Source of the DNA: Blasia pusilla
Lineage: Eukaryota
Direction: 5' to 3'
Assembly (NCBI GenBank): GCA_050084515.1
Contig: CM114271.1
Location: forward strand, 34,534,001 to 34,598,000
DNA: 64,000 nt
Shown one piece after another: positions 1-64,000 of the stretch (the first letter of the stretch is position 1; every line of letters starts with the position of its first letter). Under the pieces are notes generated by a model that saw nothing but the letters and a program-made list of their open reading frames with translations, was not told the origin of the DNA and searched no databases. A program made the position numbers and the translations under genes.

Positions 1-3000
1 CATTGGTCTAGTCTTCGAAAGGATTCTAGTGTGTGGTATGTGTGGACATGAGAGACTTATCACCTTAGGGGAGTTTAATCATACTAGAAATAGTGGATGG
101 TTTGGCTTGTTATTTTCCCAATGAGAGTGGATTATCCTTCTTGGAAGAGCATCTTCGCCAAACACCATTCTAGAGGACAGTAGAAGATGTTTGTCAAGTA
201 TGGATAGGGATGGAGCACGAGTTGTGTCCGATCTTCCTTTCCTTAACCCATATCACGTCAAGATTCTCTTTGTAGTTAGGCACTAGTTCACTCGCTATCT
301 AATTTATCACTTTGGGGAGGCGTTCATGAACCAAGTCATGCAATCTCCAACTACGTGATTCTTCCTATAGTCACATAAGGAAGAACATGGGATTGTACTT
401 GGTACCCTTCATAGATCGTGTAACTTTCAAACCTACGACATTCAAATAATGGGCTTGACGAGTGACCAATTAGAGTGACGTCTAGAGGAGGTATTTTGAC
501 GATTGCAGTTACATGGGCTGAAGCTGCATCCAAGCAAGTGCAAGTTCTTCTATAACCAGATTGAGTACTTGGATCATACGATATACCTAGGGGGCCTTGG
601 TGTGCAACAGAAGAAGGTAGAGGCTATTTCATGCATTCCACGCCCTACACATGTGAGTCGAGTTTGTGCATTCATGGGATTGGCGAACTTCTATCAATGG
701 TACGTCAAGGATTTCAGTTCAATTGCGAAGTCGCTAACCTTGCTCACCAAGGTGGATCAGGAGTGGCACTGTGGGGATAAGCACAACACAGCATTTCAAC
801 ATCTCAAGGATACATTGACGTCTGCGCCTATATTGAGGAGACCAATCAAGGGGTGTCCTTTCCAGTTGCATACCGATTGGAGTATATTGGGGCTTGGAGC
901 CGTGCTCACCCAGCATGACGATGATGGTAGAGAGTTCGTGATGGCTTACGCTAGTTGCTCAAACAACGCTGCAAAGGCAAAGTATAGCTTGTATGAGGGT
1001 GAGTGCTTGGCTGTAGTGTGGGTTGTCGTACATTTCAGATGTTATATATTCAGAAATCCCTTTACCATCATTAATGATCATCAACCACTTAAGAGGTTTA
1101 TGGAGTCGGACAAGCTCACATGGAAGCTTGCGAGGTGGGCTCTTTTGTTGCAGGAGTATGACTTCCAGGTGGTGCATAGACTTGGGATGTTCAACCAGGA
1201 TGCAGATGGTTTGAGCCATAATCCATGCCCGAGTTAGCAAGATTCGACTGGAGCTCGTTGGCATGGTGAGAGTGATGAGCAGTTGGTGCCAGGATGGCAC
1301 GCGTTAGCCTTTTTGGGATTGTTGGCTATGGAGAGCTAGATTGTTGAGACTTTGATGGCGAGGTCTGATGGAGAGTCCTTAGATCCAGAGGTCGGTGAGG
1401 AGACGATAGGTGGTCGAGAAATTCACGACGATGGAGTGGTCTTGGAGTACCTGCGTACAAGTAGCGTCGCAAGCACAGTGGGTGCTAGAGAGCAGGATCG
1501 GATCCTACGGCGAGCCAGACGGGTCCGGTGGGAGGGGACACATGTGTTGCAAGTTTAGGAGGATGATAGAGTGCGTGTTGTGCCTCATCCTTTGCAGAGA
1601 GCACATTTGATGGATCATGCCCACGAGGAGTTGGGTCATTTTGGAGTGAAGCGGACGTACAAATCGCTCCAGATACAATATTGGTGGCGAGGCATGCAGA
1701 TTGACGTTCATCAGTTTGTTGCAAGTTGCATGGTGTGTGATCAAGTTTGAGCATAGTTCAATGCTCCAACTCCACAATTGCATCCACTTTCGATCATAGA
1801 TTTAGGTTATAGATGGAGTTTGGATTTTGCAGGACCTTTGCCTTTGACAGAGCGCCATAGTCATTATGTGTTAGTAATAGTCGAGCACTTCTCAAAGTGG
1901 GTAGAGTTGGTTGCATTTCCTGATAAAGCGAGTGAGGGAGTAGCGTATCCCTTCCTAGATTGAGTGCTGAGTCATTACGGTGCATCAGTTGAAGTGTTGA
2001 TAGACCAGGGTACAGAGTTTCACGAGGAGTTTCAGGCCTTGTGTGATCAGGCCCTAATCGACCACCATACCATTTCACGAGATCATCCTGAGGCGGATGG
2101 ACTAACAAAGAGGGTTGTGCAGACGATGAAGAGAGGATTACGCAAGTATGGTCTGCAGAGAGGTCACCTAGGAGATTGAGACCTCTAGTTTCCGTGGTTG
2201 GCGATGAGATACAGATTCAGCTGGCAAGCATCCTTAGCGTCTTTCTCACCGTACTTGTTGCTTTATGGTCGAGAGCCAGATTTACCTGCGGCCATTCGTC
2301 GAGATGTTGGTGAGATATTGAATCTTGATGACCCTGATGTATGGATGCGAGCATGTTCTCAGAGGGCTGAGTTGTTTCGAAGAGTGATGCCCATGGCGTT
2401 TGAGAACTTGGCGATTGCGCAACATCGAGATACGTTGAGGTATGCGACTATTCGGGGAGGTGGTTATCAACCTACTATCCAGAGGTTTCATCAGGGAAAC
2501 TATGTCTACTTATAGTAGACGACACCCACGACATTGGATGTGACTACATGGCGCATTATCTTGAGAGTGCATGAGATTTTGCCATCCGGTGTTCTCTTAT
2601 TGGAGGGACGCGATGGTATGGTTTGGAAGGACCATGTGCGTAACTGTGCGTCATGTCATCTTCCAAACATTGACGGTACAGTTGATCCAAGCTTAGTGTT
2701 AGTTCGTGCAGGCTTGCGATGTATGTTATGTGGTTCTGCCCGTGGTGCAGTCACTATGCAAGTTTGTGATGGATGTTCGAGAGGATGGCATATGGCATGT
2801 CTAACGCCACCTCTCCTGGGGTTCCTCAAGGACGATGGATGTGTCCCAGATGTACATAGAGTAGGTAGTTCTAGATTTCGACTTGTGTCCATGACATGGA
2901 TGACAAGAAGGCGACTAACGATGGGGTCACATGAGCACCCGGCCTTTTTGGTCTTAGCGTTCGAGAGATGTATGTCATGGTAGGTAGGGATAGATGGCTA

Positions 3001-36100: not shown

Positions 36101-37055
36101 GCCCGCTGTAACGGGAGGAGTTGCAAAAACTCCGAAGTCACCGAAACTACTGAACATCCTGATTATAATGAACTGTAGTACGTCAGCGTCCTCTAGCTGG
36201 TGACACACTCTCTGAATGTCGAAGGTGCCTGACGTCTCGCAATATCCTCAGATGTTTGTGGGGGTGTGATGTCTCTAGCTGGGGGATTCAACCACTCTGA
36301 GTTACCCAAACAAACGAACATCCTAATTGTGGTGAATTTCAGTACCTCAGCGTTCTCACGCTGGTGATTCTCTGAACATCAAAGGGTCACGCACATCTCG
36401 AACGATCCTCGGATGTTCATGAGGGTGTTATATGTCTCTAGCTGGAGGATTCAATTGTTGCAAGCACCCACAAAGTGCACTGCATCGAAACTCGGAGGAG
36501 CTGCAATTTTCGTGCCTTCGGTGGGTGCTTGAGCCTCATGGATACCTGGAAGTCTACCAAGAGACCTTCTGCAATCGCGGTTGGGATGTGCTTCACGGTT
36601 AAGTCTCTCTGGCGTTGAAGTCGCTCTCCTCTCCCCATCCCAAAGATCACGGGACGTTTCGACAATCGTGACTAATGGTCCCGAGAACGTAGGGACTTCG
36701 AGAAATCACCCATCGAACTGAATGGAAAAGTAACGACGTCCATTGAAGCCCATGGTACAGGATTGCGAGGGAAGTAGTCAGCAATCACTACGACGAGTCA
36801 GTGCTAGAAATTACTACGCACAGTTCTCTGACGAACAGAATGAAAGCCCACCGTATTTTTCATGGTGTCGGTAGCCACGATGGCACTATTATCTCCCACC
36901 GTGTAAGCTGCCAGACATTTGGAGGTCAAAGTGATGGATATCAACCATTCCACAACCGCATGGCCGTCTTTGCCTTTCCATACACGCGCAACTCGAACGC
37001 GAGCCTTTCCATGCTGATGCCGTAGCTCCAGATTGCCCACCAGATCACCTGCCAT
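33132..37055 (-). CDS. UOX: Urate oxidase (uricase), peroxisomal, 300 aa; exons 37055-36852, 35472-35380, 35059-34984, 34577-34468, 34294-34203, 34001-33852, 33568-33487, 33227-33132
   Basis: Motifs HGKARVRVARVW, GDNSAIVATDTMKNTVY, QKPWERV, LLKTTKSGFEGFIRDKYTVLPE, YSPSVQNTLY, MPNIHFLP and VYLPTDEPHGSIEA. C-terminal SKL is a PTS1 signal. Eight exons, all introns GT-AG and in phase, 903 nt in total. Confidence 0.98.
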
Positions 37056-37675
37056 CCTCGTTTCCCTGTTCCGATCTTCCAGACGATGACGAGGGTTTCT
37101 CCACCCTCTTCTTCCCAATTTCCCCTTTCCTGTCCGGACAAAGCCAAGCCAACCTTGACCCTTCCGAAATGTGCCCGTCAGAATAGTTCCACACAGCGGA
37201 ACTCGACGAAATCGATCCCCAAGAAAGGCCAGCCCTCGCCCCCACCCGACATGCACAGACGAGCGCTTTCTCGCCACTACCCCGCAACCTCCGCAGAAGA
37301 TCTCGCCTCCCTATCCTCGTGATGTTCGAGAAGATGGCGAATTGGGCCCAGCTTTGTGCCCTCCGAACGCACAAATGCCACGGGCCTGCCGCATGGTCAT
37401 TCCCATCTCGCTTTTCTGTCTTCTGCCTTCTCTCGATCTGTGCGCTCCAGGTCCTTTCACGCATTCATGCAGATACACAAAGTCCCCGCAACCACCCCGT
37501 CCGACCAAATACTCGTGACGCCCGCGCAGCCAAGAATCTAGGCTCTGAGCGGTGCATGTGGGCCTCCTTTCTCTCCCCTCATCGCCTCGCCCCCTTCACG
37601 CGTCAGCAGCCTCAACCACAGCTCCACGAAACCTGTTCCGCTTCACAGCCTGATTAACGATGGAAGAAAAAGGAG

Positions 37676-48668: not shown

Positions 48669-51410
48669 TTAAAGATTTGCTTCAGCCTGTTTAAAATAGA
48701 GGCCGGCAACCGTGATTAAAACGTTCAACAAATATAGTTCCTCGGTATCTTGTAACTGCTTCAGTGCTCTAATGCCAGCACAATATCTCAGCATTGCACG
48801 AAAGGCAGCACTTGTTTCCGCATTGAGGGGTGTGTCCACCACTGCTGAAAGACCCAGTAGCCACAATGCTCGTTCTGCAGGCAAGCCGTCCACACTGTCT
48901 AACCAAGCAACATGGTACCTGAACAAAGCTGCTCTAGAAACTTCATCAAGGCGTAATAACAGACTCATCACTGGAAGGTGCTGAACTCTATCTACTCTGA
49001 ACACTTTGGTGAGAAGTTCCACCAGTGGTTCACTAATCTCATTATTGAGATCATCCTCAGAATCATCTAGCAAAATATTATTTCTTGAACTGTTGTAAAC
49101 CTCCAATCCAGTCATTGACTCCATGCAAGCTTCAGGTAGATCCAGGTATTCTAAATCCGGCATTCCAACCAATTGTAGGGAGGCTTCACTTGATTTTCCC
49201 AACTCAGCATCTGACACATAATCAGCTTCAGATTCCAGAAGCACAGTACATACTGGTGAGGTCCCACATGATGTCAACCTTGTACTAGTGAGATCCACTT
49301 CATGTTCCACAGGCTCAACATCACAGTCATGTGCTCCTGATATGCACTCAGTTTCTAGGTAATCGGCTTCAGATTCAGATGGGCATACAGGCTGCTCACA
49401 TGAACCTATCAACTCTACATGCTTGACTTCCTCTTCTTGTGTACTTGTCACTGATCCGAAACAGATTGTTTCCCAGGCTGCTCGATTTCGTATGGATGGT
49501 AAATGTTGTTCAGAAGGATCGAGTAGTAGATGAATTTTTGACAACTCCTGCACACCAAGAGGCTTCACATTACAGTTTGCAAGAGCAGATCTCTAATCTC
49601 CATGCAGGTCAATATAGATCAGCATAGCAGGGTGAGACAGGTAGAGAGTACATGGAAACAAATTAACAACTTCTCTATGCCAGCAACAAATATTTGCCAG
49701 CTAACATACCATCCTCAGCTGTGTGAAGTCTGTCAAGATGTTTTGTTCCCAGTCCTTTGATGGGAGCAAATCCGGAGGACAAGGTGCAATAGATGGAATT
49801 TCTGGCATGTATGATGTCTGTTCTGATGATAGCTTCTCTGCGTCAATTTCAGCTACCACCACCTTTGGACACCGAGCAGCTTCCCATCTGTAATGAAGTT
49901 CAACATTAACCACATCACACAGCAAGCATCACCTGTCATTGTCTGCTTCCACAACAGAGGAAAGGTACCTGAAGTTGAAAATTGTAAAAAAAATGTTACA
50001 CGCACTACCTTGCAGCCAACACAAACCCAGGATAACCATGAGACTTTACAACCATCTTTAGCATCAAATGCAGATTACCACATCTTTTCACCTAATTTGA
50101 AACAGCAATTCTGTGAAATAAGTTCTACTGAAGAAATGGGCAAAAAGGTGTGACGCTATCATACATGACACGTCGAAGATATTCCCATCCATCTTGAGGT
50201 GGCCCAGATTCAAAATCAGGTTCTCCTTCCACAGCAAAAGCTTGAGGCTGAAAACTCTCTTTCTCTTCCTCACTTTCTTCATCATAATTTCTGTATTTTG
50301 AAGACCCTTTTTTACGACCATGACTCTTTCCACCATGATAGTCAACGACTTTCTGGGAGTTGGGATTAGATACATCATAATCTCCATAGATATTGTCATT
50401 GATGATGTCACCAAGAGCTTGATCTGCGACCACAGTACATCATCAATGGTTATCTCTAATGGAACAGTTACAAAATTTTAACATCCAAAAACTTAGTAAC
50501 CTCCAATTCCAGAAATTCTCATGTAATTTGAACCCATGGTGACCTTCCGTGAAATATCAAAGACTCCTCATTTATAACAGGGTCCAACTATTCTGCTGCT
50601 GTCAGTTCATCCGTCACAAGGGAGCACTGCTATCATCACCCTTGACTTAAGGCTGTTTGCTTGGAAGGATATTTTACCATTGGCTGGTCATGACCATCTT
50701 CAGAGGGAAAGTGTACAGAATGGCAGAGAACAATTAGTCATCAGCGTGAAGCAGTTCACAGCATCTGCTAAAAGTCCCATTCTACTAGGACAAAGGGTAC
50801 TTATGTGTCCCAATCAAGTATGTTACCAGTAGATATTGAGCTTATTCTTGAAGTATCCTGTTCACTTTAAGGGGACCTAAATGACGTCTTTTGGTCTCAA
50901 TTCCAGAGTTTGCCTATTATATACCAATTTAGCACTCCTTTACTGGTGTTAAAATTCTCATTTGAAAATAACACTTCTCTTAAGTCCTAAAATTATTAAA
51001 TAGGCTGTCTAGGCTGGCATTCAAATTTTCTGGTCACTCTTACATGTCTTACCAGTGCTTAAATAGGTCAAGCCCACTCGAAATAAGTCATTATAAAGTG
51101 ATTGTGATCCCTTACCTGTTGCATTTAGGGAGCTTGCAAACAATGCATCACGCTTCGCCTTACTCCTCTGCTTTCTTTCACTATTCTTAATTCTCCTTCT
51201 TGAAAAACTAGTGTCAGTCAAAGCCTGCATTTCATTGAGCTCCTCCACAAGTTCTGGCCTCATAGCAGCGAGGACCTGACTCCACTGCTCCTCTAAATTA
51301 TCGCACTCCTCCCATATCGACAGTAGCTCTTCTCTACCGTAGCGCAGAATCCTGTATTCCACCTCACCTTGAATGAATTCAAGATTGTCTCTATCTGCCT
51401 CCACATCCAT
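48669..51410 (-). CDS. GEMIN2: GEMIN2 / SIP1 (SMN complex, snRNP assembly), ~551 aa; exons 51410-51116, 50423-50165, 49887-49710, 49592-48669
   Basis: Motifs AFAVEGEPDFESGPPQDGWEYLRRV|IWEAARCPKVVVA, EQTSYMPEIPSIAPCPPDLLPSKDWEQ and WLLGLSAVVDTPLNAETSAAFRAMLRYC...LNVLITVAGLYFKQ. Introns are in phase. The start codon and first donor are the least certain parts. Confidence 0.93.
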
Positions 51411-52970: not shown

Positions 52971-53502
52971 ATAATTACCCATTATAATATTAATAAATGA
53001 TTAATAAAAAATTCTATTCCCTTTTTGTAATCCATATCTATTACTAACCACCTATCTATTACTACCCATCTAAGCTAATGTGGTTAACCTACAAAATTGC
53101 CTATTTTGTTGTATCCTCTCGTTATATTATCGTTTTATGCATATTGGATAGATAATCATCCATTATAATATTAAAAAAGTTATTAATTGATTAATAAAAC
53201 ATTTCTATTCCATTTTTTAATCCCTATCTATTACTACCCATCTAATCTTATGCGATCAACCTACAAAATTTCCTATTTTGTTATATCTTCTCAATATCTT
53301 GCCGTATTATGCATATTGGGTCATCAATTATTTGATAGATAATCACCCATTATAATACTAAAAAATTCTTAATTGATTAAAAATTCTATGCCATTTTTCT
53401 AATCCCTATCTATTACTAACCACCTATTTATTACTACTCGTCTAATCTAATGTGGTTAACCAACAAATTTGCCTATTTTGTGGTATCTTCTCTTTATCTT
53501 AT
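52971..53502. repeat. Tandem repeat, ~185-bp unit, 3 copies, AT-rich
   Basis: ataat.a.ccattataata.taa...tatctattacta...aacc.acaaa.ttgcctattttgt starts at about 52971, 53152 and 53339. Confidence 0.9.
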
Positions 53503-53629
53503 CAACGGAAGTGAATAAATCAGTCGTGCGATGTAGGGACTACAAATAATGGATAATTTTGATAATTTAAAAATGAATTTGAATAACCCTTTTGCCTTGA
53601 GTAACATACGATTTTATTGGCTAGAAAGG

Positions 53630-56600
53630 TGTCGTGCGCATACATATTGCTATACAACATACATCGATGGTCACATCTTCACCACACAACACCAATCTTC
53701 CCCACACACGGGTCGATCCACACATATACAAAAATCAACTCATACATATACATGGAAATCACACAACCACCCCCCTAGTTGGCAGTTGGATCCCCCCAAC
53801 TCCAGATAGAAAATATCACATCTCTCTAACATGACCTACTACCCTATACACATCTCGGACACATCCATCGTTCCGTGGGAACCACATCAAGAGGGGAGAT
53901 CAGACATGACATATGCCATCCTCGAGAACAACCATCACATACCAACATGCTGGTTGCACCCCTCGCGGATCCACACAACATACATCTCAAGTCTGCAGGT
54001 ACCACTGCCAAGCTCGGATCCACCATCCCATCTACGTTCGGAAGATGACATGGCGCACAATTGCGCACATGATCCTTCCAAACCATACCATCTCGTCCCT
54101 CCAACATGAGGACTCCGCTCGGAAATACCTCGCGCACACGTAGGATTGTGCGCCCTACAGTGACATCTAGCGTCGTGGGTGCCGCCTGTTGTAAATACAC
54201 GTAATCTCCATGATGAAACCTCCTAATCCTTGGACGATAACCTCCTCCACGAATGGTCGCGTACCTCAATGTATCTCTATGCTGGGCAATAGCTAAGTTC
54301 TCAAAGGCCATAGGCATAACTCTACGAAAAACTTCTGCCCTCTGAGAACATGCTTGTACCCACACATCTGAATCATCAAGATCTAACACCTCCGCCATGT
54401 CATGTCGAATCGCTGTAGATAAATCTGGCTCTCTCCCAAAGAGCAAAAAGTACGGTGAAAATGATGCCAAGGATGCCTGCCGACTAAACGATTACCCCTT
54501 GCCAACCATGGACACTGTAGATCCCACTCCCTCAACTGTCCCCGCTGCAAGCGATACTTGCGCAATCCTCTTTGCACCGTCTGTACCACTCTCTCCGCCA
54601 ACCCATACGCCTCATGATGATCTCTGGACGTGGTGCAGTGATCTATCGCGCCTCATCACACAAGGCCTGAAACTCTCCCCTGAACTCGGTACCCTGGTCA
54701 GTCAATACCTCCGCCGGTGCACCAAAGTGACTAAGCACACGATCTAGGAACGCATAAGCTGTTCCTTCGCTCGCCTTGTCTGGTAGTGCCACCAACTCTA
54801 TCCACTTGGAGCAATGCTCCACCATGACCAACACGTACCTATGATGACATCCCGTCAATGGCAAAAGTCCCGCAAAGTCTAAACTCCACCAATAACCTAA
54901 ACCCATAATCGGCAAAGGATGTAACTGAGTGGGAGCATTGAAGGATGCTCGCACTCTGTCACATACCATACATCTGGCCACAAATTGCTGTACCCTAGTA
55001 TGCATGCCGCGCCACCGATATTGAACCTGGAGTAAGTTGTAGGTACGCTTTACTCCAAAATGTCCCAACTCCTCATGGGCATGTCGCACTACACGTGCTC
55101 GCTGGGAAGGATGAGGTACCACTCGTATCCTACCATCTCCCTATACCCGCAAAATGTGAGTCCCCTCCCACTTGAACCTCTTGGCTCTTTGTAGGATCCG
55201 ATCCCGCTCCCTAGCACTCACTGCACTCGCAATGACACCAGTGCGCAAGAACTCCACAACCTCCACGTCGTCATGGATATCACGACCATCTGTCGCCTCC
55301 TCACTAACCTCCAGATCCAAAGACTCATCATCCAACCCCACCACTGGAGTCATCACTTGTGGCTGACCTGCCATAGTCAACCAACAAAGATAGGCAGATG
55401 CATGCCAACCGGGCACCATCTCCTCATCACTCTCTCCGTGCCATCGAGCTCCTGTGTCGTCTCTCTGCCTCGGACATGGGTTACGACTCAACCCATCCGC
55501 ATCCAAGTTCAGCCGACCTGGCCTATGAACCACCTCAAACTCATACTCCTATAGTAATAGAGCCCACCTGGCAAGCTTTCCTGTAAGCTTGTCGGACTCC
55601 ATCAACCACCTCAACGGCTGATGATCAGTGATAAGTGTGAAAGGGTTGCCGAATAAATAGCACCTGAAATGTGCCACAGCCCACAGTGCAGCCAAGCACT
55701 CTCCCTCGTAGGAGCTGTACTTTGCCTCTACAATGTTGTTCGATTGGCTCGCGTAAGCCACAACAAACTCCTTCTCCTTGTCATCCCTGTGAGTAGCACT
55801 GCTCCTAGACCCAACATGCTCCAATCCATATGTAGTTGGAATGTGCGACCCCTAACCGGTCTCTGTAAAATGGGTGAGGATGTCAACCTGTCCTTGAGCT
55901 CCTGAAATGCTTGCTCCTGATCATCTCCCCACAACCAAACCAGATCAAGTCTCGTCAACAAGGTCAAAGACTTTGTGATCGCACTAAAACCCTTGACATA
56001 CCGTCGATAGAAGTTCGCCAGTCGAAGAAATGCTCGGACTCGACTCACATCTGTAGGGCGTGGAATCTGCGCAATAGCCTCTACCTTCGTCTGCTGAACG
56101 CCTAACCCACTCGGGTATATGGTGTGTGTCCCAAGTACTCAATATGCTCCTGAAAGAATCTGCACTTGCCTGGATGTAACTTCAGTCCATGTAACTGCAA
56201 TCGCCGAAACACCTCCTCCAAGTGTCGCTCATGCTCCTCAACCGTGGAATTGAAGATAAGAATATCATCTATGTAACATCGTACAAAATCCAAGCTAGCG
56301 AGAATCCTATCCATCACTCTCTAAAACTCTGCGGGCGCATTCTTCAACCCAAATGGTAAGAACCGCCACTGATACAAGCAATCTCTCTCAAACCGATCTA
56401 TCCCCCAGAATGTTGTCTTCTGCCTGTCCTCCAACCTGATAGGAAGCTGATGATAGCCAACACGAAGATCTAAAGTACTAAAGATCTTTGCATGCCCTAC
56501 CGCATCAAAGATCTCCTCAAGAGTAGGCATGGCGTACCGATCTGACCTCGTCTGTCGGTTGATAGGACGGTAATCTCCACACATCCGCCTATCCGTCCAA

Positions 56601-59600
56601 TTGCCATACATATCCTTCTTTGCCGGAATGATTGTGGCAGATGCATACTCCCCATGTGATAACTCCACAAGTCCTTCCTCCAAAAAGTCGTGACTCCTGC
56701 TCGGAATCAAGGCTCGCTCCATATCAGAATACCAGTAGGATCAACGAAAGATCGGTGTATCACTAGCCAACTCAATCCGTATCCCGGGACCCTTCAGCGC
56801 ACCCAAGTCTCTCATACTGAAGGAAAAACAAATTACATGCCCTCTCAGAATCCTATGAACTCTTCGTCGCTCTCCTCCTATCAACTTGAGACCTATCACA
56901 GGCTCCCAAGTCTCCATCGTGACCTCAATTGGAGAGGACGCAACCTCCGGCTTTGGTTGCTATGTAGCAACCCTAGCCACCTCCGCAACAGCCATTCCAC
57001 TCTGACCTCCTACACTATGCTCCACATCCGAAAAATGAACATGTGCTACTCTAGCCGCCTTCGCACTCTCTACTCGAACGACGTCCCGGGAAGTCCATGG
57101 GTGCCTATCTCTCCTCGTCTCGCCCCCAGCCAATGCTTGTACAAACCCTGTAGGCAATGGTCCAACTCGTGGACGTGACGGCATGGATGACACTCGCATC
57201 CGTCTCTGCTCAGCCATACATAGGCTGACTATCCATGTAAGACAGTTGAGGTCCATTTCCTGCCCCAACACCTGTCTACGGGATGCCTCAATCATCCCTG
57301 GCACCGCCGTAGTACCGATAGCGAACCCCATGGCGCGTTCGCGCTCATCTGCTGTAGGCTCCTCCAATGCTCCGGTCACCTCATCCCAAATCATGCCTGG
57401 CCCTCCCTGACAAAAGGCATGGGATGTTGGGAAGCTCACCAACGTAGGTAAGGCTGCCCTCAACTCCCCCATCCTATTGGCCATGGCCAACGGTGGTCTA
57501 TCATCCTGTGTCACCACTTGAGATCGACGCCGTGAGCCCAAAATAGCATCCACTGTGAGATGTCGTGCTCTCTGGACTCCAACGTATGCTTGACTCAATA
57601 CATCTTATGGTATCAAGTTCGTCCACCATAGTCGTGGACGATGGGCAAGTGATCCAACTATGGTTTGCATCTAACAACACAGCAGGTCCCAACCAAGACT
57701 TCACCTGATGTATACTCGTCATCACACGTGCAGGAGTATCTCCCAACAATGGCACGTTCTCCAAAATGTACCTGGAAAACATATCTTACTCTCTTGCAAG
57801 TGTCGTACTACTCGCACCATCTCCCAAAATATCCCTGATCTCGGATTGTGCAATCCAAATCCTCGGCCAGCTGATGAATGACCCTGACATGGCCATCCAA
57901 CAATCACCAAACGAAAGGTGCCAACTTTATCCAGATCCTGCGCCCCCACCAAAGAGATGTCGGCGGGTAGCGTATGTTGATATCCCCGTAGTGCAGATAC
58001 CGACAACAACTCAGGATACCTCTGGACCAATCTCGCCACGTGACGTAATGATACTCGCCGCGCGGTCTCATCTCTCTCCACATAAAGGTATTGATGCACC
58101 CGTATGCCCGCCTGCAATAGTGCAGCCAATTCGGTGCTAATCCCTCCGAAGAGATCTAACACCCTCTTATGGGCACTGCCACACAACGGGTGTGGTATCC
58201 AATGGGGTCAACGTCTCCACTCTAAGAGCCCGATCGCCACGTAACTCTCGCTGCTGTGGGATAAAAGCATGACTCCACGCCTGCCTCACGTCGGCACTCC
58301 TCTATAGCTCTCAAGTCATACCCCACAATGGTGAAGAGGCCTTGCCAACATGGGAAGAGACACCCGCCATGGCCTGTCTCTCCGTGGGACTATCCGCTAC
58401 TGTGACACCCTCCACATGTGCGTTCCCCTCCAATAACTCTTGGGGCCAGCTAACACTACCTGTGAAAGCCGCCAACATGGTCACAGACTCACCTCATGAT
58501 CGACCACCTCGTTCCGCAAACTGCATGGGTAACTGACTCATCGAGCCGTCACCTGACCGCCATCCTCGCCGATAAGCAGCGGTCTCTTCCCATAAGTCAA
58601 GGATGAATCTTAGGGGATATAACACTGTACTCCCCACCAACACATCGTACGACTCAACTGGTGTCGTAATCGCACGTGTGCTTACCATAGCACTATCCGT
58701 CTCATGCTCTGGCTGGACTCTAACAACTATCTCTTGTCGAGTCATATACTGCGTGGGTGACACGCCCCCAATCGAGGTCTGTATCTGGAAGGGAAAAGGC
58801 TCAATGTCGGCCTTCCATAACCCCAACGCTAAACACGCGTCTTCCCTAACATCAAGGGTTGCGCTCCTGAATCAAGTAGGACGCGTTGCGGGTGGCATAA
58901 TGTCCCCGTCGGACTAACCAAGGGAAATACTTAAGCTCGGTTATCGAGTAACACTACTCCATGTGTCACCACTGCTTGCTCTATAGCCGGTCGAGCTGGC
59001 ATATCTACCAACTTCGCCGCCGCCGCATGCCATGACTCTGTGGGGAACGTCCCGAGCACCGGCTTTGAGTGCAAGTCCACCACCTCCTCACCTACCTTTG
59101 AACAAGAAGCAGTCATCTCTCCACGCTCACACAACGTGGCGGCCAACCGAACACCTCAACTGGTCCAACTCCCAACATCGCCAACTCTATGGCGGAAAAT
59201 AGTGGAGTCTGACTCACTCTGGTGGCCACCTCCAACACTATCGTCGACAGTGACTCCGGCATAGGAGTTGTCACTCCAACTCCTCATGACGTCAACGTAG
59301 GTGCCTGAGTTGTAGGCACTGCTGGTCGTCGAGGCACCATCGATGGTGTGTGTAGTGCCTCCCACAATGTGAATGATTATGGAACCCTGGCCTGCCGCCC
59401 ATCGGTCCCCTGTGGTGGGTCAATCTCAACTCCACCTCTCTATGGCTCGGTGCCTCTCGCAGCACCCCGAGTCACCACTGCACCTGCCTCAACCTGGGCT
59501 GCACTACACATAAATCCCATACTGGCAAGATCCTCACCCGGGTCAGGGTAAGAGGTAGAAGCTGGAGTCACACTAGCTGCTCGTAGCTCCGTGCCTTCCC

Positions 59601-59759: not shown

Positions 59760-62700
59760 ATACTTCCGTTGTGTGTCATGTAGATGGTGAGTGTTGGCGG
59801 ATCATCACTAAATAGGGAGAGACGGCCACTTGGTATTATTACAAATATGCCAATTTCGCAACAAAGTTCGGGAAGACATATTGAAGTATTGAAGAATACC
59901 TCCCCGGTGTAAGAACCTTTGCTTAGGATAAGGAAGTAAGCATCTTATTTCCATTTCAACGATGATGCCTTGGGTTTATTGCATGAGAAAAACATATTTT
60001 CAAGAAAATGACGTAAGTTTACTACATCGACGCTCATTTAGCATGTCCAATTTCCCACCTCACAAAATATTCACTTTTCATTTAATTTTGTAAGCTTTTA
60101 ACATTCATGTGTTGTTCCAGACTTCCAATCCCATTGAATCATGTCAATATACTGACCAAGGTTCTAATCGCCCAAAAATAAAATGCTATTCGAAATGATA
60201 GAATGGAAGCTTCAAAGAAAAAAGAGGAATTACTATCGAGAGTATTGTCAAGTTCCTGAGAGTATTGCTCCTATTCCATTGAATAGGTACCTGTATCTAA
60301 CTTTTTATATTTGATTCACTTCATAACTATTTGATTTACTCCGTTTTTTATTTGTATTTATTCTTATCAATATTTTGACATATTTTCTTAGGCCTTCCAA
60401 TGAGGATGGAATAATAGTAGAAGAAAATCAAGAAGTGAGCGAACAATCGACGGAGTATATTTATATATCGCCAAGACTCGAGTTAGTTGACAATGCATTC
60501 CATGAAATTATCGAGAATACATCCACGATTGAGCCATCACAAGTTGAGTTACCTAACACTCCTCATATTCCAATTCAAAATGAAGTTGTCAACAATTTGT
60601 CGACCGCTCTTCCTATTCGAGTTCAAGATGAAGTTGTCGACAATTCGTCGACCACTCTTCCTATTCTTGTTCAAGATGAAGTTTTTGACAATTCGTCCAA
60701 TTTTGCCTAACTCGGGGATGAATCAAGGTCAAGAGTAGATGCCATGTCTCCTAATGGAGTTTTGTTATCTCCACAACGTGCCACTGTACCAAATACTTAT
60801 ATAATTTGTGTGTCGTCTACCCTTGATAGAGTTTTAAGATTAAATACATTACTCAATCTTGCAAGGAGGCCAAATTTTCAAGAAAGTGATATTTGGAAGT
60901 TGCAATTACAAAGGAGTTTGATCGTACCAGCGCTCGTCATACATTAGGTTCTATGACAGAGATATGTCCTTCATGCCGTGCTTTACATTGGAAATGTGAA
61001 GTGGTCAAAGGTACTAAGTTTGGTGACTCACAATATGGTATGTGTTGTGCCCATGGGAGAATATACTTACCTCTCTTGAGATCGTCTCCTCCATTTCTTA
61101 AATCCTTGATTTCGGGTATTGGTCCTAGAAGCGTTCATTTTCTTACACATGCTCAAGCTTATAATTCTGCACTTCAACTTGCATCTATTGGGATCAATGT
61201 AAACGAACGAATTGGTGGCAATGGACACTTTAGGGTCCAAGGCAGGATCTATCATTCCATTGGACCTTTACATCTTGATATAGGGGGACATCCCCAAATT
61301 GTTCAACTATACATCTATGATATTGCAAATGAATTGGAAAATCGTGTTAGAGTTATGTCTACATCTTCTAATCTTAATATGGATATTTTGAAAGGTCTCC
61401 AAGACATGTTACATGAATGCAATCCATATGTGAAGATCTTTCGTCATATGGCATATGAAGCAAGTGATCTTAATATGCGGATTATCCTCAAGGCAAGTAA
61501 GAGAGGTCTTGATGCAAAGCGTTATAACTTACCAATTGCTTCTGAAGTTGCTGCTATTTTTCCGGGTGATGGAAGTGAACACGTTGAGCATCGTGATATA
61601 ATTGTACGACTACATGGAGGAGGAGTCAAACATATATCCGACCTCAACAAAGTATATATTCCCTTACATTTTGTTTTATTATTTATCTATGGTGAAGTAG
61701 GTTGGTATCCTGGAATACCCTTTGGGCAAATCGAAGGCTGTAGAAAATCCTGACGATTGGGCCACATTATTCATGGAGAGGAGGGACATCCTGAACCTTC
61801 AAATGATTGCATGGATGAGGACAGAGTTTATAGTGATATTGTTGAGGAAAGAAGAACAAAATGTATTACGGCCTTGCAAATTGCATGTTTTGGACTTCAA
61901 ATGTGGGTTGGAGGAGATGATGACAATCGCTTATTGCGGCTTTGTCGACTTACTCAAGAATATATGGTTGAACTCTATGTCACTGTGGAAATGCAATGAT
62001 TATCATGGGTGCGCTTAAATCAGAAGGAGTTGAGGGCTGAATTATATCAAGGTGTAAAGGATGCCATGCATCAATAAGATGCGGATAGCCAAAGGCTTAG
62101 GGAGACGCATTATATTACCTTCTTCTTTTACTGGAGGGCCACGTCATATGCATCAATTGTATCAAGATGCAATGGCAATTGTACGACATTTGGGGAAGCC
62201 TGACTACTTCTTAACCATGACATGCAATCCAAAGTGCGAGGAGATTACATCAGCCCTATTATCTGGCCAATCACTGCAGACCGACTAGATTTGGTCGTGC
62301 GGGTTTTTGAGAAGAAAAAGAAGGACTTGTTACGACTTATCATCAAGAAGGAGATATTGGGCTGAGTTGTAGGATGCATCCATGTGGTGGAATTCCAAAA
62401 AAGAGGATTACCGCATATGCATGTCCTTATTATTTTAGGTCATGAGGATAAATCACGTACCATAATTGATTATGATCGTATCATTTTACTTGAAATCCCT
62501 TATCAATCTACCCATCCAAGGTTATATTCTATCGTTGCTAATTGCATGGTTCACGGGCCATGTGGACCATTAAATCCAAATGCTCCGTGTATGGATAAGG
62601 AAACAAAAAAACGTATAAAAGGCTATCCTAAAGCTTTTGCGGCCAACACTACCAAAACAAAAGTTGGTTATCCAATATATCGTAGGTAAGGATCATTTTA

Positions 62701-64000
62701 TTTCTAAGGCATATGTATTCATGATTCCTTCCAATACCTTCATTCATGATTAATTACGATTATTATTGTGTTTTTGTAGATTGGAGAATGGAAGGGCGAT
62801 AAGTAAGAGCAAACATTCATTGGATAATCATTTGGTTTTGCCTTACAATCCGATGTTATGCACCTTATTCGATTGTCACATTAATTTGGAGATTATAAGT
62901 AGTGTTTCTGTTGTCAAGTACTTATACAAATATGTTTATAAAGGAGCTGATGTTGTGTCATTTAAGTTGTCAAAGGATATGGATACATCCAATGTAATTG
63001 AAGTTATTGACGAGACAACGTGATATCTTGATGCGATGTATGATTTTATGGATTGACTTCTATGATGCATTATACTTTATTTCTCAACTTCATGTGATTG
63101 TCCTTACTCAAATACTTGGAATTCTCATTATTCCAAATATATATCTTCTTGGGAGGCATGTTGGGATCTCTTTAAGTTTAGTCTACATGCCGAACTTCCA
63201 AGTATCGTTCGACTGGCAGTCCATCTTCCGACACAACAATTAGTCTACTTCAATGATGTTGACGCTCTTGGAGATATTTTGCAACTAAAAAGAGAGGCAA
63301 CATTGATCCAATGGTTTGCAACCAATCTATCTGACTCTAGTGCTCGACAATATCTATACATAGATTTTCTTGCTTATTATCGTTGAAGTAACAAGAGGTG
63401 GATTCGTAGGGTACAAAAACAAAATGGTTGTGGCCATCCCATTGGTCGCTTATACCTTACTCATCCAAGTAAATGCTCACAACTTCTTTGTATATAATTT
63501 CTTTTATATTCCACCTCTAAAGCGATGTATCTATATGTTGGGATAAACTCATTTAGTTTAATTCCTCGTAGGTGAAGGAGAACATCATTGGTTGAGATGA
63601 CTTCTCCATCATGTTCGAGGAGCAACTACGTATGAATGTTTGAGAACTGTTAATGGGTTATTATGTCCAACATTCAAGGAGGCTTCTATCCAATTGGGAC
63701 TTCTTGAGGATGATAGGGAAGTGTTCTCTTGCTTTGAAGAAGCTTCTACAATTTGTATAGGTTCTTCACTTTGTCGCCTATTTGTAATTATTCTAGCGTA
63801 CAACACATTTGCTCAATCTACAACACTTTGGAGTCAATTATTGGTTCCAATGGTAGAAGATCTCTTATATGAAGGGCGTCTAGTAAGAATTCATTAATAC
63901 CCTTGCATCATTTTTTTTATTCTTAATAGTATCTTCTATTGAGCATTCAACAATCTAACCAATTTTGGGTTATCATCCTATTTTGTAGAAAATTGGAATT
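59760..64000 (+). mobile_element. Helitron, Rep portion of RepHel, intron-containing, decayed; continues beyond the window (5' boundary uncertain)
   Basis: Motifs CPSCRALHW..CCAHG, AYNSALQLASIG, QGRIYHSIG, QLYIYD, HECNPYVK, RYNLP..SEVAAIF, GRRIILPSSFTGGPRHMHQLYQDAMAIVRHLGKPDYFLTMTCNP, HUH motif VEFQKRGLPHMH, VHGPCG, KYLYKYVYKG and LRTVNG..PTFKEASIQLGLLEDD. GT-AG introns at about 62686-62779 and 63469-63571. Multiple stops. Confidence 0.95.

Follow-up and report, generated by a model that had tools for sequence, protein, structure and literature searches.

The textbook example of a transposon choosing its landing site by reading chromatin is integration guided by a chromodomain. MAGGY is an example of the chromoviruses, Ty3/Gypsy elements that carry a chromodomain at the C-terminus of the integrase (Gao et al., 2008, cited in 10.1101/2021.11.30.470311; PMC6673714). 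Across 172 eukaryote genomes, PHD and Chromo were the commonest reader domains fused with transposons (10.1101/2021.11.30.470311), and PHD fingers able to read histone tails are encoded by many retrotransposons (de Mendoza et al., PMC6673714). The polyprotein of the Chlamydomonas element Gypsy-7a_cRei has a PHD finger, its intergenic insertions are 2.6 times more frequent than expected and targeted insertion was suggested by the authors; REM1 (Perez-Alegre, 2005) is cited in the same article for PHD fingers in Chlamydomonas transposons (PMC9940879). KnitGypsy-Dnmt3 of Klebsormidium nitens is a long terminal repeat (LTR) element of the Gypsy type with a Dnmt3 cytosine methyltransferase inside the pol open reading frame (ORF) (de Mendoza et al., 2018, PMC5890265), and EpiLTRs are retrotransposons that combine a chromodomain with DAM and DNMT enzymes (10.64898/2026.05.21.726589). 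A PHD finger in a Gypsy pol (Chlamydomonas) and a DNMT3 in a Gypsy pol (Klebsormidium) are thus already published. This article describes a Ty3/Gypsy-type retrotransposon of the liverwort Blasia pusilla whose pol has both, taking as case study two degraded copies (copy 1 and copy 2) in a stretch of 64,000 nucleotides, hereafter the window (assembly GCA_050084515.1, contig CM114271.1, positions 34,534,001 to 34,598,000 of the forward strand).

The pol region of copy 2 ends in an intact C4HC3 PHD finger, although the pol around it is broken. The finger closes a 215-aa open frame, P0001, obtained by reverse-complement translation of the minus strand at 53844-54491; the C-terminal end reads ...LRCMLCGSARGATSMLVCDGCSRGWHMSCLISPLDVVPTERWMCPRCV and then stop, the last residues being given also as CMLCGSARGATSMLVCDGCSRGWHMSCLISPLDVVPTERWMCPRCV with the stop directly after. 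The first Cys codon begins at 53984 and the stop codon occupies 53846-53844. Residues 170-214 match the complete Pfam profile PF00628 (positions 1-47 of 47, E 5e-10), scoring 39.7 bits against a curated cut-off of 24 bits, and the zinc ligands C170, C173, C185, C188, H193, C196, C211 and C214 keep the canonical C4HC3 spacing. In copy 1, on the plus strand, the finger lies at 2720-2859. Its first 33 codons are in frame from 2720 (Pfam PHD, E 1.8e-05 for this part), and three-frame reading shows that a one-base frameshift puts the remainder, VPQGRWMCPRCT with the stop at 2857-2859, into a different frame; two adjacent stops stand in the same frame upstream of the finger. The two copies share 73.7% nucleotide identity by blastn (485-2864 of copy 1 versus 56218-53839 of copy 2), and past the stop codon that follows the finger they are no longer homologous. 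An earlier interpretation made from the letters of this DNA (the sequence-only reading) had seen an intact C4HC3 finger at the end of pol, a frameshifted one in copy 1 and, in the finger, a trait of the family. The peptide it quoted is identical to the end of P0001, the frameshift of copy 1 was confirmed in the second half of the finger, and the profile search and structure prediction it had proposed as checks gave a PF00628 match above the cut-off and a PHD fold in the model described below.

The family trait is borne out by the relatives. A word-indexed search for longer proteins returned 141 matches; among the 120 matches listed, the nearest named ones are from Marchantia polymorpha (79% and 77% identity) and Calypogeia fissa (77%), and farther relatives listed are from Pleodorina, Tetrabaena, Cymbomonas and Klebsormidium. 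With HMMER, 3576 of 1.84 billion representatives were found at E<=1e-3; tightening the threshold to E<=1e-10 left 921, and E<=1e-30 left 300. A PHD match to the window finger is present in 242 of the 252 relatives retrieved, 220 of them with the full C4HC3 pattern; the ten without a match are mostly truncated and include one Klebsormidium protein. Each of the eight zinc ligands is retained in 97-100% of the 242 relatives (in order, 239/240, 237/241, 241/242, 240/242, 242/242, 241/242, 233/234 and 228/228). Between the two window copies the ratio of nonsynonymous to synonymous substitution rates (dN/dS) comes to 0.086 over 199 codons, and the 33 in-frame PHD codons taken alone give 0.054; both values are approximate because dS is saturated (1.4-2.2), yet clearly far below 1. 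The finger is conserved and kept by purifying selection. By these matches it appears to mark a large Gypsy clade of the green lineage, comprising liverworts, charophyte-like algae and chlorophyte algae, with at least 300 cluster representatives at E<=1e-30, liverworts and volvocine algae included.

The 90% cluster of the nearest relative, P0002, contains intact 1035-aa ORFs with reverse transcriptase (RT), RNase H, integrase and PHD, and also at least five Marchantia polymorpha gene models (Mp_1g16610, Mp_2g01070, Mp_3g25500, Mp_8g07960 and Mp_8g15440) on chromosomes 1, 2, 3 and 8. These models are transposon-family fragments of 142-239 aa annotated only as hypothetical or as "PHD-type domain-containing protein", and fragments so named should not count as host chromatin readers. 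Their names would suit a view in which a host exon, or a pattern of zinc ligands arisen by chance, lies beside a transposon. Against it, finger and integrase C-terminal domain share one reading frame in both copies and in 242/252 relatives, intact polyproteins of 1035-2811 aa among them, and the homology of the copies stops at the stop codon behind it. Word depth in a genomic run is about 50-150 at 53000-53650 and 10^3-10^5 between about 53651 and 59500. As the depth is high from about 53650 across the finger, the finger is part of the repeated unit, and the jump places the 3' edge of the unit about 200 bases past the stop codon. On the in-frame integrase fusion, the end of homology and the repeat depth, the host-exon or chance-pattern view retains hardly any credence and was rejected. 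The depth is consistent with a high-copy family, summed contig depth not being equal to copy number. As a separate observation on database labels, the P0011 cluster holds an intact 1043-aa RT-RNase H-integrase-PHD ORF deposited as "uncultured Synechococcales cyanobacterium", a label that is probably a metagenome binning error on an ORF of this eukaryotic family.

The position of the finger was examined on an AlphaFold2 (AF2) model of P0001, based on a 38-sequence alignment and with a mean predicted local distance difference test score (pLDDT) of 87.6. The model consists of a long helix, a five-stranded barrel at about residues 86-155 (strands 97-100, 115-122, 127-131, 137-141 and 145-147) and the finger at 165-215, across which pLDDT is 88-96. 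Structural comparison with VIA-align relates the barrel to Tudor, KOW and SH3-like folds, including the PHF19 Tudor (Z 8.5) and the C-terminal domain of prototype foamy virus integrase (4bac_A, Z 6.7), and the modelled barrel of a relative matches the C-terminal domain of murine leukaemia virus integrase with Z 6.1. The best match of the finger is the H3-bound ATXR5 PHD (Z 9.6, root-mean-square deviation (rmsd) 1.1 A over 51 of 54 residues, 37% identity), followed by DPF2 (8.5), UHRF1 (8.0), Arabidopsis ORC1b with unmodified H3 (7.9), Lid PHD1 (7.6) and CHD4 PHD2 (7.2). With Foldseek, Tudor-PHD tandems (PHF1, MTF2 and the UHRF1 TTD-PHD) rank first for the whole P0001 model, and the finger alone falls on DPF3, DPF2, UHRF1, BAZ2A/B, ATXR5 and KDM5B PHD1 at 0.6-2.1 A, the lowest value being that for DPF3 over 48 columns; identity to cage-less PHD structures is 31-48%. 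As modelled, the finger is directly behind the integrase C-terminal barrel, which is the place of the chromodomain in chromoviruses. No chromodomain (PF00385) was found in the ORFs of the window, in 120 precomputed Pfam lists or in the 23 long relatives scanned.

The class of the finger is indicated by its closest solved relatives. The top PDB sequence match is KDM5A PHD1 (E 2e-12), with KDM5B PHD1, Lid, DPF3, KMT2D, CHD4, KMT2C, DPF2, PHF12, PHF21A/BHC80, ATXR5, UHRF1/2, KAT6A/B, WSTF, BAZ2A/B and AIRE as further matches. None of the 60 PDB chains listed is known to read H3K4me3 through an aromatic cage as BPTF, ING or TAF3 do. In KDM5A PHD1 the carbonyls of P331 and G333 hold the H3 amine, L309, P331 and W335 form the pocket of H3A1, D312 (which is essential) and D315 bind H3R2, and E305, L308 and the backbone carbonyls of V291-Y294 touch H3K4, E305K strongly lowering the affinity (10.1101/715474). 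These residues were mapped on the window finger by a gapless alignment, the N-terminal end (V291-Y294) being extended by count. P331 is kept as P205, the A1 pocket as L183/P205/W209 and the arginine-binding D312 of KDM5A/AIRE as D186 (D in 227/242 relatives), L308 is conservatively replaced by M182, and V291-Y294 fall on P165-L168. G191 stands where KDM5A has S317, and W192 aligns with the core residue Tyr318. There is no aromatic residue at any mapped position of the K4 pocket, where the cage residues of ING2 and BPTF fall (PMC2261226); P165-L168, A179 and M182 are all non-aromatic, in agreement with the sequence-only reading, which had noticed no aromatic cage. Judged by sequence and model, the finger is a member of the cage-less PHD class that clamps the free N-terminus of H3, with H3 binding itself putative. 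A finger of the window type would likely bind an H3-like N-terminus, and exclusion of K4me3 is plausible.

For the family as a whole, the place and class of the finger fit a chromatin tether for integration through putative H3 binding, an account that we favour with moderate confidence. Most likely the finger would tether the integration complex to nucleosomes through H3 tails that lack K4 trimethylation, and such tethering would bias new insertions away from active promoters. Histone binding, a preference for unmethylated K4 (weaker for the liverwort subfamily) and the effect on insertion sites are the steps that we infer. Several observations weigh against this account. Both copies in the window are degraded, no LTR pair was found around copy 2 by direct-repeat search, self-blastn or word-size-7 blastn of the flanks, and the saturated dS blunts the estimate of selection. 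Of the KDM5A contacts, G333 is changed to E207 (G in 190/235 relatives), the contact being one of the backbone; D315 is lost (S189), D316 is replaced by R190 and the K4 contact E305 is lost (A179). More than 50 residues follow the finger in 173/242 relatives. Within the loop at 174-181, the 21 nearest relatives (P0002-P0022) have at most one acidic residue each, and 14/21 are net positive.

The residues behind the finger bear on the suggestion of the sequence-only reading that a PHD finger stands in place of the chromodomain. The position after the barrel and the lack of a chromodomain in the relatives scanned support it, and the phrase "replaces the chromodomain" is positional only because the finger is so often non-terminal; it is terminal (at most 10 residues after it) in 41/242 relatives, including all long relatives near the window. 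A conserved tail follows the finger in the architecture typified by P0054, the P0054 tail matching 58 relatives and the P0040 tail 54. The AF2 model of P0102 shows a confident small beta-barrel at about 294-365 (pLDDT 90-95), weakly similar to Spindlin-4 (Z 6.4, rmsd 3.9 A, 72 aligned), and the Pfam PTM/DIR17 Tudor family is matched weakly in the tail of P0109 (E 0.049) and, as a precomputed match, in P0087. From these models the tail barrel after the PHD in P0054, P0102, P0109, P0087 and others may be a second reader domain. The search of the ESM Atlas with the P0054 tail behind the finger gave no usable match, and a Pfam match of the long tail of P0095 to an N6-adenine methyltransferase family (E 0.11) was discarded as too weak.

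The changes around the K4 pocket lead to a different ligand as an alternative: the finger of the liverwort subfamily may have abandoned H3K4me0 for another H3 state, for an H3-like N-terminus of a host protein or, by way of its basic loop, for nucleic acid or an acidic surface. The wider-family consensus has an acidic loop P-D-D-E at 176-179, and two or more acidic residues occur at 174-181 in 157/221 of the other relatives, whereas the loop is basic or neutral in the 21 nearest; A179, S189 and R190 stand for E305, D315 and D316 of KDM5A, and the structural matches include the UHRF1 PHD in complex with PAF15 and with Stella. L183, P205 and W209 of the A1 pocket and D186, the counterpart of the R2 aspartate, are nevertheless kept, and a basic loop does not exclude K4me0 reading because BHC80/PHF21A has one. 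BHC80 is a reader of H3K4me0 with an acidic residue N-terminal of the first Cys, comparable to the K4-contacting AIRE D297 (PMC2261226; 10.1101/715474). Its sequence CRKSGQLLMCDTCSRVYH, compared with C-GDPRRPATMILCDVCSRGWH of the subfamily, has in common the motif CDxCSRxxH, and its loop is basic (RKSGQ). In the window D167 stands three residues before the first Cys, a position occupied by Gly in 19/21 nearest relatives. A change of ligand in the subfamily is, on balance, unlikely. The H3K4me0 preference proposed in the sequence-only reading fares differently in its parts: the A1 pocket and D186 agree with it, and in the liverwort subfamily the K4 carboxylate of E305 has given way to Ala179. 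Selectivity for H3K4me0 is plausible for the wider family, in most members of which the loop is acidic, and weaker as a proposal for that subfamily.

The second domain of interest is the methyltransferase. Its best solved relatives are DNMT3A, 3B and 3C (weak matches, from E 5.5e-4), followed by plant DRM2, and the fragment 57722-58207 matches PF00145 (E 4.2e-07), so that the enzyme that the sequence-only reading had ascribed to the element is indeed present and is a C5 methyltransferase of the DNMT3 type. The PHD/METHYLTRANSFERASE link comes in two pol architectures in the family. In the first (the window, P0021, P0069, P0175 and P0338) the methyltransferase precedes RT and the finger stands at the very end; in the second (P0054, P0062, P0066, P0068, P0120, P0144, P0170, P0204 and P0209) the methyltransferase lies between RNase H and integrase, and 100-370 residues are found behind the finger. 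The two positions suggest two acquisitions or one rearrangement. The methyltransferase regions of P0021 and P0054 were used as queries against the 71 relatives that extend 1000 residues or more ahead of the finger, and a methyltransferase-like region was detected in 52/71, an upper bound because the query regions include flanking spacer; Pfam alone finds PF00145 in a minority of relatives. The remaining 19/71 have no such region in the same ORF, and 12 of them are among the closest relatives, with ORFs that start just before RT. By these matches the co-occurrence of finger and methyltransferase is apparently frequent, and not obligatory.

This co-occurrence, together with the DNMT3-like character of the enzyme, could mean that the finger serves the methyltransferase of the element itself, sensing the H3 tail as an ADD domain does to guide or release the enzyme, with methylation of the new copy or its surroundings as the outcome. 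The second architecture would suit such a role, since the methyltransferase stands there directly before integrase-PHD and the two could stay in one protein. The finger is, however, joined to the barrel of the integrase, in the window architecture it is separated from the methyltransferase by RT, RNase H and integrase, and the 19/71 relatives that keep it without a methyltransferase-like region in the same ORF include 12 of those closest to the window; the spacer in the queries, moreover, makes 52/71 a generous count. A role of this kind seems distinctly unlikely to us. Of the coupling between reader and writer put forward in the sequence-only reading, co-occurrence is left as the one basis, the two domains standing at opposite ends of pol here. 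A bolder variant, which we regard as speculative and quite improbable, would join both activities: the integrase PHD would sense H3 free of K4 methylation and the enzyme of the element would then methylate the new copy or its surroundings, so that the element both picks and marks silent chromatin. If true, this split reader and writer would be a transposon-borne analogue of the ADD-DNMT3 logic, and the switch of the K4 loop from acidic in chlorophyte relatives to basic in the liverwort subfamily would be a land-plant retargeting to a different chromatin state.

Tethering of integration remains the favoured account, and it concerns the family only, since both window copies are dead and nothing at this locus is functional. 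What stands here is a dead retrotransposon of the Ty3/Gypsy type. Its domains come in the order protease, DNMT3-like methyltransferase, RT, RNase H, integrase and PHD, and its parts are listed in the table.

Features of the two element copies in the window
Feature	Coordinates	Strand	Evidence
PHD finger (C4HC3, P0001 residues 170-215) and pol stop codon, copy 2	53844..53984	-	translation, Pfam PF00628, AF2, structural match
Integrase C-terminal SH3/Tudor-like beta-barrel (P0001 ~86-155), directly upstream of the finger	54027..54236	-	AF2 strands, VIA-align
Integrase zinc-binding H2C2 and catalytic core rve, frameshift near 54650-54690	54494..55140	-	Pfam, tblastn
RNase H region, two overlapping frames	55549..56138	-	Pfam PF17917 (E 2.8e-24) and PF17919
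Reverse transcriptase	56126..56896	-	Pfam PF00078, tblastn with P0014 residues 1-262
DNMT3-like C5 cytosine methyltransferase, upstream of RT, with in-frame stops	57212..58207	-	Pfam, tblastn with P0021 residues 3-712
Protease-like region upstream of the methyltransferase	58158..58670	-	tblastn with Marchantia model P0006 residues 1-172, 44% identity
Copy 1, 5'-truncated: RT (part), RNase H, integrase and PHD, with in-frame stops	437..2864	+	blastn, tblastn, Pfam, three-frame reading

The domains PF00078, PF17917/PF17919, PF17921 and PF00665 occur in sequence, which is the Ty3/Gypsy pol order, and the closest solved relative of the family member P0021 is Ty3 Gag-Pol (E 2.2e-94). Individual assignments in copy 2 come from the ORFs 56321-56740 (PF00078, E 6.4e-09) and 54643-55140 (PF17921, E 5.1e-16, and PF00665, E 4.3e-13), and with intact relatives the methyltransferase extends by tblastn from 58162 to 57212; the putative protease and gag ORFs of the window have no Pfam match. 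The decay of copy 2 is extensive. Its frames run -1, -3, -2, -1, -3 from 58162 to 53850 by tblastn with intact relatives, with a frame change at about 55790-55836 in the RNase H region and the frames -2, then -1, then -3 along the integrase stretch. At least four frameshifts and several in-frame stops were counted, the ORFs 55549-55851, 55141-55548 and 54643-55140 abutting in one frame. Because of these frame changes and stops, copy 2 is regarded as a dead copy in which the finger is intact by chance. The full architecture exists intact elsewhere, as P0338 (2811 aa, ending 3 residues after the finger) carries all domains in one ORF: methyltransferase, RT, RNase H, integrase and PHD, preceded by a weak aspartyl-protease match (PF13975, E 0.0019, 19.2 bits where the cut-off is 28.2). 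In each of three raw-read runs of RNA sequencing, which carry the same organism label as the best DNA match, 100-133 reads were found and the finger was covered. These reads derive from close paralogues other than this copy, since most are 95-99% alike; the first mate is nearly always on the plus strand, which, for libraries stranded in the common way, would be sense to the element.

The surroundings of copy 2 were also inspected. Helitron-like ORF fragments at 60890-63897 on the plus strand, directly upstream of the 5' side of the element, may interrupt or bound it; within them, the ORF 62366-62689 matches Pfam Helitron_like_N below the cut-off (E 1.6e-05). Three tandem 48-base repeats (71-83% identity) lie at 60559-60702 inside a plus-strand ORF. 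On the other side, 340-870 bases downstream of the pol stop and outside the high-depth repeated unit, 52971-53503 holds three tandem copies of a 130-200-base unit with 64-88% identity. On the minus strand, about 4 kb from copy 2, host exons similar to SIP1/Gemin2 occur at 48672-49592 (PF04938, E 6.3e-24); a uricase-like piece stands at 36807-37310 on the same strand (E 2.3e-06). Because of the host-gene exons nearby, copy 2 is placed in gene-containing DNA, a single case that carries no implication for targeting.

Compared with the systems described to date, the idea that a reader domain directs such elements is less new than the sequence-only reading assumed, because PMC9940879 and 10.1101/2021.11.30.470311 are in print. 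No statement on a PHD together with a DNMT3-type enzyme in one Gypsy pol was found in the literature text searched (figures and PDF supplements excepted), nor was a description of the PHD-Gypsy family in liverworts in the same text. What may be new is the breadth of the PHD-plus-DNMT3 combination and the switch of the loop from acidic to basic. Like Gypsy-7a_cRei, the window element is a green-lineage Gypsy with a PHD in Gag-Pol. Gypsy-7a_cRei differs in being 15.4 kb long, and in the portions of its description consulted the legend lists PHD among the pol domains, with no statement on the integrase end and no mention of a methyltransferase (PMC9940879). Volvocine relatives (Pleodorina and Tetrabaena) are among the window-family matches listed, Gypsy-7a_cRei having been compared by description only.

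With KnitGypsy-Dnmt3 the window element shares a DNMT3-like C5-methyltransferase within a Gypsy pol, Klebsormidium being a streptophyte. The DIRS-like repeat arrangement of that element was not found around the one in the window. The term "PHD" is absent from the main text of its description (PMC5890265), and "PHD", "PF00628" and "KnitGypsy" are absent from one text supplement, although the figures and PDF supplements may show a finger; the single K. nitens relative retrieved here, P0103 (48% identity), covers the integrase only and has no recognisable finger. Like the EpiLTRs, the window element unites a chromatin reader and a DNA methyltransferase in one LTR element; unlike them, with their chromodomain and adenine methyltransferase, it has a PHD, and its sole methyltransferase is DNMT3-like.

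Among host proteins, KDM5A/B PHD1, BHC80/PHF21A, AIRE PHD1, DPF2/3 PHD2, ATXR5, UHRF1 and BAZ2A share with the finger the C4HC3 fold, residues of the A1 pocket and the R2 aspartate, and cage-less H3 readers likewise have small or aliphatic residues at the mapped K4-pocket positions. Unlike the cage-less host readers, the window subfamily has lost the K4 carboxylate and its finger sits in a transposon integrase. The family supplies natural variants for tests of how the specificity of a reader acts on insertion landscapes, with an acidic or a basic K4 loop, with or without the DNMT3-type enzyme and with or without the additional Tudor-like barrel. The likeness to chromoviruses lies in a histone-tail reader that follows the C-terminal barrel of the integrase in a Gypsy-type pol, with a presumed steering of integration by chromatin state; the difference lies in the reader, a PHD whose likely ligand is the H3 N-terminus (A1-R2-K4) instead of H3K9me. 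If the PHD is used at this same place by a second, very large clade, the strategy of reading chromatin would have arisen more than once, with different readers.

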